NCBI GenBank assembly: GCA_042217585.1
Contig: JBDGSJ010000008.1
Coordinates: 1-47,232, forward strand
Length of the DNA: 47,232 bases
Reading direction: 5' to 3'
DNA from: Candidatus Nanohaloarchaea archaeon
GTDB taxonomy: Archaea > Nanohalarchaeota > Nanosalinia > Nanosalinales > Nanosalinaceae
The notes beneath the pieces are model-generated. The model ran no database searches, was not told the DNA's origin, and was given only the letters and a program-made list of their open reading frames with translations. Position numbers and translations under genes: made by a program. Position 1 is the stretch's first letter; the number at the start of each line of letters is the position of its first letter. Below are positions 6,984-19,298 of this stretch, piece after piece.

Positions 6984-9749
6984 ATGCTGCCGGAAGAGAG
7001 CCTTGAGAGAGCCCGGGAGGAGACCGCGGACTGGGAGGAAGAGATAGAGGAGAAGATATACGCACGCGGCAAGCAGATAGAGTACGGGTACGGCGGCGCA
7101 CTCGAGAGCGACCGCACCCTCAGACTGCCGCACGAGATAGATGACCAGTCCAACTGCCACGAGCAGGGTCTCTTCATCTACTCCCTCGCCAAAGCCGCGG
7201 GGAAGGACCCGAGGTTCCTCAGGCTCCAGCAGTCAGGCACCTGGCACGCCGCAGTTGACGTCGAATCAGGGGACGGAAGAGTCCTCATCGACCCCTACGC
7301 CGATACCTTCGGACCCGTAAAGTACGAGGACCAGAGGATAGAGGTCGAGGACAACGACCTCACCGCCAGGACGGAGAGATCGTTCCGCAAGGTCAAACAG
7401 CTGTCAGAGGAGGAGTTCATGGAGGAGGCCGAGGTCCTGAGGCAGGACCTCGTATCCATGATAGAGGACGGGCAGAGGATCAACGCCGACCTCGACATCT
7501 CAGAAGACGTTCTAAGGACCTCGGACATGGTGAAGATAAACGACGAGGAGAGGGCGCTGGAGAGGACCGTCAAGGCCGACATACTCGCAGGTTACCGGGA
7601 CCCCAACGCCAAGGTCCTGAGACCCTTCGACGAGGAAGGAGGACTGGAGGGGAGGACCGAGGTCTTCCTCGATGTCACGGGGAGCGACTGGGCCCACACC
7701 TACGGCGAGGCGGTCCTCGCGAAGAGAAAGGACGGAGAGCTCGAGGTTAACGACTCCCTCGGATCCCCCGCCAGGGAGAACATGGCGAAGAGGATGAAGT
7801 ACAGGGAACTCCGGGACGGCTCGAAATTCCTGTACGACAGGGAGGAAAGAGAGGAGTTCATACAGCGGAAAAGAGAAGAGACCAGGGACCTGAAGGAAGG
7901 TCCGCCCGCGCTCCACGACTACGTCATCGAGAGACTGTTCTACGGGAGCGTTTTGAGCGAGGCCCGGGAGGAGGACGTCGAGAGAGAAAGACAGAGGAGG
8001 CTCGACTGGCTGAAATTCCTGGAAGAGCACGAGGTCGAGGTCCCGGACCAGGAGGAGGCCGCCGAGAAAGTGCCCGAGTACATACAGATACACGAGGAGA
8101 TGCTGGAAGAGGCCTCCGGCTCCGGGGAAGAGCTGGAGAAGATGGAGGAGGACCTCGAGGGAGGTCTCGAGGCACGCAAAGAGTACGAGGTGGAGGAGGT
8201 CCTCGGCGAGATAGAGGAGGCAGGCCTCTCAGAGACCTACGACGAGATGGCGGACTGCTTCAGGGAGCTCTACGAAGCGGATGAACTGGAAAGAGAGGAC
8301 GTCAGGGAGCTGGACCGGTACGGCGCACTCCTGCTGGTCGAGGACGGGATGATGGACCGGTTCGACGCACTCCTCTGCGACCTCCAGTCAGAGAGGGACG
8401 GGGAGATAGCAGAGTTCATAGGCGACTACAGGGAGGCGACCCGTCAGACCATGAGGGAGGTCCGGTCCCAGAAAGCCCAGGCCTTCATCTACGAGTGGGA
8501 GTTCAGCGAGGAGGAAGACGAACTCAGGTTCGAGATGAAGAACACGGACAACATGCTTTCACCCCACGACAGCCACGTGGTGGCCGCCTTCGAGCTCGAT
8601 GAGCTGGGACGGCTCGAGGGAAGAAGGATGGAGGCCTTCGACACGATGGAGGGAGTGGACGAGAAGTACACCTTCCTCGAAACCGAGGTCGAGGACTTCC
8701 AGGGTATCGATCTCGAGATGTTCCAGGACATGGCGATGGAGAACATGGAAGAGGTGCTGGACAGGAAGAACCTCGTCGCCCCGGAACCCCACACCGACAG
8801 GGACCTCCTCGACAAGAACCTCGAGTACCTCGCGCTCTCGCCGACCGCGGAACTGGTCCAGAGACACCAGTCAGGCAACCTGGAGGAACTCCCCGATGAA
8901 CTCCCGATATACTTCACCGAGGAAGACCTTGAGGATTTCCACGAAAAGATGGTGAGACAGGAGGAGTGGATAAGGGACTCCGAGTTCCTGAGACCGGCGT
9001 GGAGAGAGAAAGCCAGGAAAACCCTCGAGAACTTCGGGGAGATAGAGGAGGGGTCCAGGGAATGGTACCTCGCCCTCGAACAGAACAGGATAATGGGTAT
9101 GCACCTCAACGGCCAGAAGGACGAGGTCAGGGACCTCGCCCGCGAAAGGTACGGCTCAAAGGAGGAGATGTACCGGGAGTACATGACCCGGCACCACGGA
9201 CTCCTGAGGACAGGCCTCCAGAACGGCGACGGACCCGCGATAGCCAGCGCGATGCTCAACCGGGTCAGGGAGGGAAAGAAGATGAAGATCCCCGACCGGG
9301 ACAGGGTCAGGGAGTTCGCGGAGGAGAACGACTTCACCGAGATACTCGAACTGGACCGCGCCATCAGCGAGGGAGACCAGGAGGAGGCACTGGATAAACT
9401 CTCACATCTGGACCGGATGGAGGAGAGGATACAGGACGACTACCAGAGGAAGGCACTCAGGGACTCCATGAAACACTTCAGGCAGAGGATACTGAGAGGG
9501 GGGTCCGTGGAAACGGACCTCTCACCCTCGACAGGGATGGGGGAAGAGCCGGAGAAAGGTGTGGACGTGACAGCGCAGGGGGACGGGAACCAGATGCCCG
9601 AACCCGTGGACCTCAGCGATCTCTTCAGCCCTCCAGCCACCGCGGACAACTCACATGAACTCCAGGACTCGGAACTGGTGGAGAAGCTGAAGGAGGCCGC
9701 CGAACACCTGGACTCGTACCGCCACCTCGGCGACCTCTCCAGGGAATGA
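6984..9749 (+). CDS. 921-aa protein with an N-terminal transglutaminase-like (Cys-His-Asp) domain
   Basis: 'SNCHEQGLFIYSLAKAAG...WHAAVDV...LIDPY' has the C/H/D order and spacing of the transglutaminase-like superfamily; the remainder is acidic and helical. Confidence 0.75.
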   Translation: MLPEESLERAREETADWEEEIEEKIYARGKQIEYGYGGALESDRTLRLPHEIDDQSNCHEQGLFIYSLAKAAGKDPRFLRLQQSGTWHAAVDVESGDGRVLIDPYADTFGPVKYEDQRIEVEDNDLTARTERSFRKVKQLSEEEFMEEAEVLRQDLVSMIEDGQRINADLDISEDVLRTSDMVKINDEERALERTVKADILAGYRDPNAKVLRPFDEEGGLEGRTEVFLDVTGSDWAHTYGEAVLAKRKDGELEVNDSLGSPARENMAKRMKYRELRDGSKFLYDREEREEFIQRKREETRDLKEGPPALHDYVIERLFYGSVLSEAREEDVERERQRRLDWLKFLEEHEVEVPDQEEAAEKVPEYIQIHEEMLEEASGSGEELEKMEEDLEGGLEARKEYEVEEVLGEIEEAGLSETYDEMADCFRELYEADELEREDVRELDRYGALLLVEDGMMDRFDALLCDLQSERDGEIAEFIGDYREATRQTMREVRSQKAQAFIYEWEFSEEEDELRFEMKNTDNMLSPHDSHVVAAFELDELGRLEGRRMEAFDTMEGVDEKYTFLETEVEDFQGIDLEMFQDMAMENMEEVLDRKNLVAPEPHTDRDLLDKNLEYLALSPTAELVQRHQSGNLEELPDELPIYFTEEDLEDFHEKMVRQEEWIRDSEFLRPAWREKARKTLENFGEIEEGSREWYLALEQNRIMGMHLNGQKDEVRDLARERYGSKEEMYREYMTRHHGLLRTGLQNGDGPAIASAMLNRVREGKKMKIPDRDRVREFAEENDFTEILELDRAISEGDQEEALDKLSHLDRMEERIQDDYQRKALRDSMKHFRQRILRGGSVETDLSPSTGMGEEPEKGVDVTAQGDGNQMPEPVDLSDLFSPPATADNSHELQDSELVEKLKEAAEHLDSYRHLGDLSRE

Positions 9750-9788
9750 CAGAAAATTCTCGATACCGTACCTCTGAGACTCACACAG

Positions 9789-9917
9789 GACCCGAGAGTG
9801 TTCGCATCTCCTGAACAGTAATGTGTTCGAGAATATCGAACAAACCAATTACTTAAGAACCTTTTGTTGTGGTCAGTCGGTGAATCCAGCCTGATGAGTG
9901 TTGAGTCTGGTCGAACA
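9789..9917 (+). repeat. Left arm of a diverged inverted repeat, with three TGTT-N11-AACA palindromes
   Basis: TGTTCG-catctcc-TGAACA 9799-9817; TGTTCG-agaatat-CGAACA 9824-9842; TGTTGA-gtctggt-CGAACA 9899-9917. Collinear with the reverse complement of 10797-10928. Confidence 0.8.
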
Positions 9918-10006
9918 ATCTTTCTCTCCACCGGTTTTTCGCGGTTCTCCGGCTTCCACGGCCAACATAATTAGGGATCGAGAAGAAATTTGGTTACAGA
10001 AGTACG

Positions 10007-10485
10007 ATGGCAGACAGAAAGGATGAGGAGAGCGCTATAAGGAGGATCGAACAGAGGGCCACGGACTCGGAGAAAAGCCTGAAGAAGATGATAGAGGGCC
10101 TGGAGAAGGAGAAAGACAAGCACGAGAGGCTGATGAAGGAGAACGAGCAGATCCTCCAGCAGCTCCGTGAATCCTTGACGTCGTGAGGGACATGGAGAAG
10201 ATAGGCGAGCACCTCGAGAAGACCGCAGAGAAGGTCCGCAGGGGGCAGCCCGGAGCCACGAAAGGGATAGAGAAGGACCTCAAGAGCCTGAAGAAGGACG
10301 TCAAGAAGTTCAAGAAACAGATGCAGCAGATACTCCAGGAGCTCCGCGACACGCGCCGTGGTCTTGAGGAGGAACAGGAGATAGAGAAGAAACTGGAGAA
10401 GATAGAGAACCACCTCGAGGAAAACCTCCAGGAGCTCAGGAAAAGAGAGAAACAGATCCGGGATATGGAGAGGGAAGTCAGGTGA
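10007..10485 (+). pseudogene. Coiled-coil protein gene split by a single-base frameshift near 10170 (or a sequencing error)
   Basis: ATG 10007 frame reads MADRKDEE...QILQQLRE and stops at 10186. Adding one A at CGT GA|ATC joins it to ILDVVRDMEKIGEH...EREVR (stop 10485), giving a continuous 159-aa heptad protein. Confidence 0.7.
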
Positions 10486-10498
10486 GGAACACCAGAAC

Positions 10499-10676
10499 TC
10501 TCGTAACAAAGAAGGTATAACAGGAACGAGTGAATCGGTGAATTCCTCAGGAGGTCGCGAAGATATACCTCCTTTATTATATGGTGTATCTTTCTCGATT
10601 ACCCTTGTTGAAGCACCAAGGATGTTGCAAGAACCACGTTTCCCGCATTCTCGGATAAAGGTCCTTTGTTAAGAGA
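10499..10676. repeat. Three copies of a 22-bp motif (reference ATATACCTCCTTTGTTAAGAGA)
   Basis: Matches to the copy at 17449-17470: 10499-10520 on the minus strand (19/22), 10563-10584 (17/22) and 10655-10676 (19/22). Confidence 0.8.
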
Positions 10677-10719
10677 GGTTTCTCGAGTTTTCGCTCAAAG
10701 GCTCCCTGGATGGCAGGGA

Positions 10720-10928
10720 TGTTCTCTCAGAGTCAACACTCACGAGGTCCTTCTCTGGTCGAAAGCTGCTCGACCTCCCGCCCAGGGGTCGATGGGTGTT
10801 CACATCCGCCAAACACTCGTCAGACTCTTATTTACCGTAGAATGAAAACATAAGGAATTAAAGAGAGTAGTGTGTTCGTCCGGAACGAACATATCTGTGT
10901 TCGCTCTGTCTCAACAGTCTCAGGGGTC
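10720..10928 (-). repeat. Right arm of the inverted repeat region, with four TGTT-N11-AACA palindromes
   Basis: TGTTCT-ctcagag-TCAACA 10720-10738; TGTTCA-catccgc-CAAACA 10797-10815; TGTTCG-tccggaa-CGAACA 10873-10891; TGTTCG-ctctgtc-TCAACA 10898-10916. Confidence 0.8.
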
Positions 10929-10957
10929 GCGTGAGTTTCCCTGAGAGCGAGCGGCTT

Positions 10958-17448: not shown

Positions 17449-17470
17449 ATATACCTCCTTTGTTAAGAGA
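17449..17470 (+). promoter_or_regulatory. 22-bp motif overlapping the start of the winged-helix gene
   Basis: ATATACCTCCTTTGTTAAGAGA; its last A is the A of ATG 17470. Three related copies lie at 10499-10676. Confidence 0.65.
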
Positions 17471-17952
17471 TGTTCATGTCCGAGGATGACCATCCCTTCG
17501 TGGACGAGGACGCGAGGAAGTCGAAAACCCTGGTGACTAAGCACTCCATCGCGATACCGGAGGACGAGCAGAAGTACAGGAAGGGCGACAGGGCCTGGAA
17601 CTGGGAGAAGATAGTGGACCTTTTCTTTCCGCACGAGCAGTCCCCGAAGCGGAACAAGTACGCGAAGATATTCCTGCAGGAGCTGAAGAAGGAGGGCGAA
17701 ATCGACTCTGAAAAACTGAACGCGTTCGATGAATGGGGTCACGAGAAGGGAAAGTCGAACCTGAAGAACAATATACTGCCGAAACTGAGAAGACTTGGCG
17801 TGATCAAGTACGAGTATCTGGAGTATCGAGACCGCAGCGAAGGGTCTCAGGGCCGCCACAAGGTCGTCAAACCTGCCAGGTCCTTCACATCGATACTGGA
17901 CTCTATGGCGAACGGCTGGGCTGCTTTCGAGTCAGCGGCCTTCCAAGATTGA
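17470..17952 (+). CDS. Putative winged-helix DNA-binding protein
   Basis: 'KSNLKNNILPKLRRLGVIKYE...GRHKVVK' resembles a wHTH recognition helix plus wing; more basic than neighbouring proteins. Start 17470 or 17476. Confidence 0.6.
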   Translation: MFMSEDDHPFVDEDARKSKTLVTKHSIAIPEDEQKYRKGDRAWNWEKIVDLFFPHEQSPKRNKYAKIFLQELKKEGEIDSEKLNAFDEWGHEKGKSNLKNNILPKLRRLGVIKYEYLEYRDRSEGSQGRHKVVKPARSFTSILDSMANGWAAFESAAFQD

Positions 17953-17954
17953 AT

Positions 17955-18015
17955 GCCTTCCGATCTTCTCCGGAGTTTCAGCGCATCCGGAAGGCGGTCT
18001 CAGAGGCCGGCCTCT
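17955..18015. terminator. Hairpins between convergent genes
   Basis: GCCTTCCG (17955-17962) pairs with CGGAAGGC (17988-17995); palindrome AGAGGCCGGCCTCT at 18002-18015. Confidence 0.4.
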
Positions 18016-18023
18016 TCGTCATG

Positions 18024-18140
18024 CTATAGAGTAGTTGCTGGAACTACGTTTGCCTTGGGCGAGACTTCTGGCTGAGTCTTCGCGACTTCCTCGACCTGAG
18101 CTGAGAGCTCAGCTTCGAAGTCCCGGACGTTCGCGTTCAT
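18024..18140 (-). CDS. 38-aa small protein MNANVRDFEAELSAQVEEVAKTQPEVSPKANVVPATTL
   Basis: GAGGTG RBS 7 nt before ATG 18140; TAG at 18026-18024; shorter than anything in the ORF track. Confidence 0.6.
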   Translation of the reverse strand: MNANVRDFEAELSAQVEEVAKTQPEVSPKANVVPATTL

Positions 18141-18204
18141 TCGTTTGCACCTCGTGTTTTGTTTGGTGGTGTACGTGTGTTGTGGTCGCGATCTGGAAGG
18201 CCTG

Positions 18205-18545: not shown

Positions 18546-19298
18546 TCACGGGACGTGAGGTTCGAAGACCTCGCCTCTCAGGCGCTGATGGACTTCTTCA
18601 AGCAGGTCCTGGAGGTTCTCGGCGTCGTACTGGTTGTACCTGATGAGCTTCCGGAGCGCCTCCCGGTCGCCGTTCTTCTCGTACTGCTTCCACAGCCGGA
18701 CCGCCTCGCGTCCGTCGATGTCCTCGAGCTCTCTCTGGATCCCGAGCTCCTTCTCGATGGGCTTCAGGCCGCCGGTGAGGCCCATCCTCTTGCAGGGGTA
18801 CATCAGGTCTATGTGGGGGTTCTCGATGTCCAGGTCGAAGTTCTTCTCGAGGAAAGGGACGTCGAAACGTTTCCCGTTGAAGGTGACCACGATGCTTGAC
18901 TCGAAGAACTCCTGTCTCAGGTTCTCGGCCGTAAGGTCCTCCCCGCGGACCAGCGTCCGGGATTCGCCGTTGCGGTAGAAGCTGACGGTCGTGACCCGGT
19001 TCCTGTCGAAGTCGAGTCCTGTGGTCTCGATGTCGAAGAAGCAGGCGTCCTCACGGAAGTTCCGGTACATCCTCCAGTAGCTGTCAGACGGAAGTTTGTC
19101 GCCGAAGAATACGCTGTTGCCGACCTCGAGGTTCTTCCTGGCCTTCCCGAGAAAGCCGGTTATCCGGTCCTTCTTCCCGTCCGATATGTTCGAGGAGTCC
19201 TCGACGTGGTCCCAGTGGGTTATACCGTTCTCCCATAGCTTCTTCTCCGTCTTTTCGCCCACGCGGGGTACCTGTATGAAGCTGTTCTCCAGTCTCAT
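18546..19298 (-). CDS. YprB-like RNase H-fold (DEDD-type) exonuclease with an N-terminal HhH
   Basis: 'VPRVGEKTEKKLW', 'FFDIETTGL', 'VTFNGKRFDVPFL', 'HIDL', 'YNQYDA'. Confidence 0.88.
   Translation of the reverse strand: MRLENSFIQVPRVGEKTEKKLWENGITHWDHVEDSSNISDGKKDRITGFLGKARKNLEVGNSVFFGDKLPSDSYWRMYRNFREDACFFDIETTGLDFDRNRVTTVSFYRNGESRTLVRGEDLTAENLRQEFFESSIVVTFNGKRFDVPFLEKNFDLDIENPHIDLMYPCKRMGLTGGLKPIEKELGIQRELEDIDGREAVRLWKQYEKNGDREALRKLIRYNQYDAENLQDLLEEVHQRLRGEVFEPHVP

Follow-up and report, generated by a model that had tools for sequence, protein, structure and literature searches.

The window analysed here is the whole stretch of 47,232 nucleotides from contig JBDGSJ010000008.1 of a Candidatus Nanohaloarchaea archaeon, the source assembly of which we call G000; the source names of protein homologues put the host in the Nanohaloarchaeota. 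The window contains dnaK, dnaJ, grpE, polB and an SDR gene, all named from their translations, a FIST-domain gene adjoining a Roadblock/LC7 gene (666–2337) and, directly to the left of the locus described below, a gene for an acidic protein of 921 aa without a Pfam match (6984–9749). The locus itself (Table 1) is marked by palindromes of the form TGTT-N11-AACA, which we refer to as motif A. A preliminary description of this DNA had listed seven of them, and all seven are present at the starts given in Table 1, as compared to an expectation of 0.16 copies, with no shuffle yielding more than one. When the motif was scanned for across the 0.98-Mb assembly, as the same description had proposed, the locus emerged as the sole cluster: the 12 copies outside it are scattered and occur at the level seen with other spacer lengths (1–12 per spacer).

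Table 1. Features of the locus and of the P160 gene, in window coordinates (strand ".", palindrome assigned to neither strand).
Feature	Position	Strand	Remark
Left arm	9777–9917	+	Three motif A palindromes (9799, 9824, 9899); TATA-like tract 9850–9857; likely inward-facing promoter
Motif A copy	9799–9817	.	Pattern match and profile
Motif A copy	9824–9842	.	25 bp from the copy at 9799
Motif A copy	9899–9917	.	75 bp from the copy at 9824
59-aa coiled-coil ORF	10007–10186	+	Variable cargo; most relatives have the 70-aa gene here instead
97-aa coiled-coil ORF	10192–10485	+	Variable cargo
Motif B copy 1 (B1; AAYAAAGRAGGTWTA)	10505–10519	+	Start of the conserved core
Motif B copy 2 (B2), inverted	10564–10578	-	59 bp from copy 1
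Conserved block ATCT..TC(T/G)G...ACCC	10584–10610	+	Between B2 and B3; similar block in sister-family cores
Motif B copy 3 (B3)	10656–10670	-	2 mismatches; 92 bp from copy 2
Motif A copy flanking the core	10720–10738	.	Phased to B3
Right arm	10797–10941	-	Three motif A palindromes (10797, 10873, 10898); TATA-like tract 10857–10864; likely inward-facing promoter
Motif B copy 4	17450–17464	-	Likely site of autoregulation (predicted), 5 nt ahead of the P160 start
P160 (P0001)	17470–17952	+	160 aa; predicted winged helix; no Pfam match; likely binder of motif B (predicted)

The left arm aligns almost gap-free with the reverse complement of the right arm, as had been noted before, and the similarity exceeds that of the boxes: when the TGTT/AACA boxes were held and the remainder shuffled, the score of 99 compared with 42 ± 9, and none of the 2000 shuffles reached it. 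While the palindromes of the earlier layout are real, its reading of the copy at 10720 as an extra right-arm repeat is not borne out, as this copy is a core-flanking site in 21/21 loci compared. A profile built from 102 sites at 17 loci (G000 and G013 excluded) has the consensus GAGTGTTCR-N7-YGAACACTC, with an outline of 11-7-11 and spacers that vary from copy to copy; searched genome-wide, it places 7/14 matches inside the locus in G000, and likewise 7/14 in G013. There are 5–8 A sites per locus (median 7, 21 loci), laid out as a three-site arm, a core with single flanking A sites and a second arm, and the cargo genes between these elements differ. The gaps between A sites are 25 bp (16 cases), 35 bp (8 cases) or 76/77 bp (23 cases), with gaps of about 86 bp also occurring. 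Finally, most of the 29 arm segments have a TATA-like TTTTAA 11–13 bp further inward than their second A site.

The inventory of the interval had been incomplete: the two short ORFs for coiled-coil proteins had been overlooked, as had a conserved core in which a second motif, the 15-bp motif B, occurs three times. The core spans 10505–10670, with one copy forward and two reversed, and has a GC content of 43% as compared to 58% for the window. Since the centre of B3 is flipped in some relatives, we take motif B to be a pseudo-palindrome. The stretch from B1 to B3 aligns gap-free (±1 bp) across 20 genomes. Exact motif B is present in 20/24 host-family genomes (reversed control, 0) and, allowing for one mismatch at most, it is confined in the G000 assembly to the core and the region upstream of P160. 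A tandem duplication of the B core in one genome (L258, G061:C5) has yielded two cores, at 9209–9359 and 10405–10555. The distances from A to B sites are stepwise, near 42, 54, 65 and 76 bp, with a best period of 11.6 bp and an R of 0.74 (99.9% null, 0.55; the genomes are related and thus not independent). Helical phasing of this kind suggests a bent or wrapped protein–DNA complex. Taken together, conservation, fixed spacing and phasing argue for the 'multi-site protein-binding platform' of the preliminary description.

A conserved core between promoter-like arms, with B1 and B2 able to pair, could also encode a non-coding RNA transcribed from the arms. We consider this highly improbable: an Rfam match is absent, RNAalifold returns a B1/B2 stem only (covariation term of −0.02, A–C mismatches in 2–3 of 20 rows), the spacing is kept without indels, and motif B precedes P160 in either orientation. 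As the sole stem is trivial and lacks covariation, and as Rfam is empty, the core motifs appear to behave as DNA sites. For the G019 copy no RNA holder was listed, a result that weighs neither for nor against an RNA.

The locus is a real, phylum-wide element. The tandem palindrome pair was found in 10/41 genomes (reversed control, 0), and the matches in the nine relatives comprise eight instances of the same locus and one match (in G001) upstream of nrdR. In the host family, as read in 20-kb stretches, the locus lies between radA-rpa-histone(-wHTH90) and dnaJ-dnaK-grpE-P160-polB; in the sister families it lies between wHTH90 and the P160-like gene. It is single-copy and occupies one syntenic position across five families, with variable cargo. 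Among viral contigs the tandem pattern has 87 matches, roughly the chance estimate, and none of the 80 that were read had the layout of the locus. A metagenome scan, for which the pattern was too loose, found a cluster on a single contig in 80 loci, and the search for loci related via P0065 returned one locus. No description of such a locus was found in the open-access literature searched.

The most frequent cargo is a 70-aa gene found in 33/49 host-family genomes, usually inside the locus (for example, L015:1089–1325); this gene or other cargo starts 45–90 bp inward of an arm. The model of the 70-aa protein resembles the ArgR oligomerisation domain (a middling Z of 7.6, rmsd 2.1, 65 aligned), and wHTH90 is a relative of AF1382 (PDB 2qvo, E 1.7e-12). 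As the 70-aa gene often lies beside the wHTH90 gene and its product has an ArgR-like fold, the two possibly constitute a split ArgR-like pair. The wHTH90 gene beside the locus in G019 (L053:10341–10592) looks frameshifted, with an intact paralogue elsewhere in that genome.

Multi-box inverted arms around variable cargo, together with a 6-bp direct repeat (CTGAGA) that flanks 9780–10940, would suit the ends of a non-autonomous mobile element, one of the four candidates put forward in the preliminary description. However, CTGAGA lies off the matched termini, and about 0.2 such 6-bp matches are expected (840 end pairs tried), so that there is no convincing target-site duplication; moreover, the boxes are palindromic, the single copy keeps the same syntenic place phylum-wide, and none of the loci read is an empty site. 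The absence of a transposase or integrase from the window, noted previously, was confirmed among the window ORFs scanned in Pfam. We give this reading next to no credence.

The orientation of the core varies: it points towards radA in 7/25 genomes and away from it in 18/25 (the radA side being inferred from dnaJ for two of the 25), and both states occur within two genera. One could thus picture a cer/psi-like site, equipped with accessory binding sites, at which site-specific recombination or inversion flips the core; the 11-7-11 outline of motif A and the ArgR-like 70-aa protein would also speak for such a site. We find this improbable, given that the A spacers are unequal among copies, that a PF00589 tyrosine recombinase, present in 3/5 genomes, was not found in G000 or in the complete genome G013, and that ordinary homologous recombination between the inverted arms would account for the flips.

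Which protein binds the core? The P160 model (pLDDT 65, moderate quality) consists of a winged helix and a C-terminal helix; its best structural match is TFE-alpha (Z 8.1, rmsd 4.2, 100 aligned), while matches to the PadR family are weak (E about 0.03) and AspA is not among the matches listed. P160 is single-copy in 44/49 host-family genomes, and its identity between G000 and G013 is 80.9% (TBP, 82.9%). Motif B is found upstream of P160 in 30/30 loci read, in one orientation in 26 and in the other in 4, and the host-family gene, with its own B site, lies 2–23 kb from the core. Distant relatives occur in other archaea, including in 33/41 genomes of the phylum to which an Altiarchaeia record belongs; in that phylum, wHTH90 is located about 1 kb away in 2/4 loci read.

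The P160-like proteins of the sister families have diverged into a subfamily of their own, in which the recognition helix differs. hhalign relates them to the wider family at 96.8%, and the direct comparison of host-family P160 with the sister-family protein is not significant (0.6–0.9%); we treat the two as homologous because of the wider profile and synteny. Motif B was not found near the P160-like gene in sister-family genomes. Its place, both upstream of this gene and in the core, is taken by motif C (GTTKAC-N6-GTHAAC), which is located 48–56 bp upstream of the gene in 7/8 sister-family loci with a located gene start (a ninth locus, the start of which was not found, was dropped). In the host family, motif C is present in 0/30 promoters and 0/16 cores. 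Since protein and site change together between families, which is the main support for the assignment, P160 likely binds the motif B core.

The preliminary description had raised the possibility of a non-ORB replication origin, noting that the window is devoid of orc1/cdc6; indeed, cdc6 is encoded on a separate contig (C35). In 8/8 single-contig genomes checked, the locus is 18–62 kb, or 1.8–5.9% of the genome, away from cdc6. ORB-like boxes, recognised by the ORB consensus, lie upstream of cdc6 in 10/10 genomes read, G000 included, and are not among the conserved motifs of the locus (A and B). On G000:C35 (L041), as in each of the 10 genomes read, the boxes are inverted and enclose a conserved AT-rich stretch of ATAACA repeats, forming a canonical ORB origin. 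Two sister-family loci (L247:9360–9390 and L121, about 18920–18945) have an ORB-like string next to an A site of the arm. In the complete genome G013, whose terminus falls near 468 kb, the codon-corrected keto skew switches at cdc6 (95% interval of −6.5 to +0.7 kb), and a switch at the locus (24.6 kb) fits 25–29 log-likelihood units worse. For G001 and G006, placing the switch at the locus gives the wrong sign; in G006, the switch is not at cdc6 either. With ORBs at cdc6 and the skew switch elsewhere than at the locus in three complete genomes, we conclude that the locus is not the origin.

A second or dormant origin, with P160 acting as a WhiP-like winged-helix initiator, would be a variation on the same theme. 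The inverted B sites around a central spacer, the low GC content of the core, the high conservation of a winged-helix protein and the replication genes nearby would all fit, and rare firing is compatible with the skew; nevertheless, given the boxes at cdc6 in every genome read and the G013 switch at cdc6, we assign only a small probability to this option. For its part, the proximity of the locus to the origin may simply come with its neighbours, the radA, rpa, histone and polB genes.

Outside the locus, the best A site in G000 precedes an ftsZ gene, about 40 bp ahead of its TATA box and with no ORF between the site and ftsZ. As this paralogue is not linked to secE-nusG, it is probably of the ftsZ2 type. 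A sites scoring at least 10 bits are located upstream of one ftsZ paralogue in 13/30 genomes, as compared to 0.31 in shuffles, and the profile search detected no such enrichment at nrdR promoters (1/29) or P160 promoters (0/29). Tandem GAACA half-sites at intervals of 10–11 bp are also found upstream of the ftsZ TATA box (L260–L282; 74 vs 16 in shuffles). The nrdR promoters (L305–L326) carry a degenerate A-like box, WRTTCR-N7-YCAACA, 8–9 bp upstream of the TATA box, with a profile score that is not significant, followed by a conserved ACATRT-rich inverted repeat.

The ftsZ2-type gene (G000:C13, about 17920–18164; L260–L289) is further distinguished by a conserved leader of 170–290 nt with about three hairpins that share the loop UUGGGC: 70 of the 123 TGGG[CA] words fall in hairpin loops, 45 of them as UUGGGC, and the median z is −2.5. 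The leader has the look of a cis-regulatory RNA, so far not described, on which an RNA-binding protein would act, and it occupies the place of cdrS.

Several small proteins were considered as binders of motif A. wHTH90 is missing from G000 and the complete genome G010, and its promoters contain no A site (best, 5.8 bits). The 70-aa protein is missing from G000, the complete genome G001 and nearly all sister-family genomes (present in 1/20), and its model is not AbrB-like. A 48-aa RHH protein, the one small conserved RHH tested, is missing from the complete genomes G013, G017 and G019. All three fail as the A-binder, since for each there is a complete genome, or more than one, with the sites but not the protein. 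Of the 256 small proteins common to G000 and G013, 93 were scanned with NCBIfam, and no decisive candidate emerged.

Of the four candidates of the preliminary description, a partition or chromosome-organising locus is now the leading, if putative, one. Our preferred reading, which we hold at slightly below even confidence, is a centromere-like or titration site that links duplication of the origin to chromosome organisation and division. The two-motif array, with its fixed and phased spacing, would likely assemble a wrapped nucleoprotein complex in which dimers of P160 bind the three core B sites, repressing their own gene via the fourth, and a second, putative dimeric protein binds the 5–8 A sites and also regulates ftsZ. 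Being copied shortly after initiation, the locus would double its A and B sites, and the doubled sites could anchor the newly copied origin regions or organise them, could titrate the A-binder away from the ftsZ promoter, or could do both, so that division would be timed to replication. SMC is present in 5/5 genomes; in G013, ScpB scores above the cut-off and an ScpA-like match below it. Against this reading, no gene of the ParA/MinD family lies near the locus, the nearest AAA_31 match above the cut-off being 65–144 kb away in four complete genomes.

The main competitor of this reading is a control region with a purely transcriptional role, in which the arms are promoters, the core is the ancestral P160 promoter, P160 and a division regulator are the regulators, and the phasing reflects repression loops. 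Such a role is plausible because the arms are promoter-like and because the core of the compact sister-family loci simply coincides with the region preceding the P160 gene, as a promoter would; it directly precedes P160 in L246 and L241. The fixed position of TTTTAA in the arms, the short distance from arm to cargo start and the A site upstream of the ftsZ TATA box point the same way. The first of these also lends substance to the homologous convergent promoters of the preliminary description, which, however, leave the core unexplained. In the host family, on the other hand, P160 is 2–23 kb off and has its own B site, yet the core keeps its exact spacing without a conserved gene to control. 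Furthermore, one arm often faces no ORF (as does the right arm in the window), the cargo genes are dispensable, and an RNA product is unsupported by Rfam and RNAalifold. On balance, we regard a purely transcriptional role as rather unlikely.

The fuller version of the centromere-like reading, namely that Nanohaloarchaeota possess a dedicated, replication-sensing locus of this type served by the undescribed winged-helix family P160 and a regulator shared with ftsZ, is tentative and slightly less probable than its general form. If true, this would be the first known cis-acting element for chromosome segregation or the cell cycle in DPANN, operating without ParAB or SegAB, and would bear on how DPANN and most archaea that divide by FtsZ segregate their chromosomes and time division. 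The analysis delineates a locus and links it to ftsZ, describes two motifs by their profiles and names a candidate protein that co-changes with its site. If the plainer reading holds instead, a widespread archaeal protein family whose function is not known would still gain its first candidate DNA target in the core.

How does the locus compare with known systems? On the features tested, it does not belong with ParABS, SegAB, oriC, Xer sites or transposon ends. Like archaeal oriC (ORB with Orc1/Cdc6, or the WhiP origin), it has inverted sites around a spacer and replication genes nearby, but the ORB origin is here a separate locus at cdc6. With bacterial parS and SegAB it shares palindromic sites close to the origin or to a gene and a binder that has, as predicted here, a site in its own promoter. 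Unlike in these systems, there is no adjacent ParA/SegA, P160 has neither a ParB nor an RHH fold, and the sites form one phased two-motif cluster instead of scattered boxes. Its motifs also differ from that of SegB, which is reported to recognise a 13-bp motif, TCTAGA-S-TCTAGA, and to have sites ahead of segA (PMC12284271; PMC11381335).

The link to ftsZ invites comparison with the CdrS and aCcr1 regulons, in which an ftsZ promoter is likewise preceded by a palindromic site. The haloarchaeal ftsZ regulator is CdrS, with a palindromic site at −50 of ftsZ1 (PMC8406309); unlike the regulator postulated here, it is reported as undetected in DPANN (PMC7439475). The aCcr1 box, a 9-bp motif, differs from motif A (PMC9976878).

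Two further systems bear comparison. P160, with its predicted winged helix, weak PadR-family matches and a B site upstream of its own gene, may be set beside AspA, from the AspA-ParB-ParA system of the Sulfolobus plasmid pNOB8, a small PadR-like winged-helix protein that binds a palindrome upstream of its own gene. P160 differs in having no parB/parA neighbours and no detected sequence match to that system, and its locus is chromosomal and phylum-wide, with a second motif and arms. The datA locus of E. coli and crtS of Vibrio are non-coding multi-site loci at a set distance from the origin that act on replication initiators. Similarly, duplication of the present locus could titrate a cell-cycle protein, although its sites bear no relation to ORBs and an ftsZ promoter is the target to which it is linked. 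By analogy, then, the locus would in its working be most like a parS- or datA/crtS-type element.
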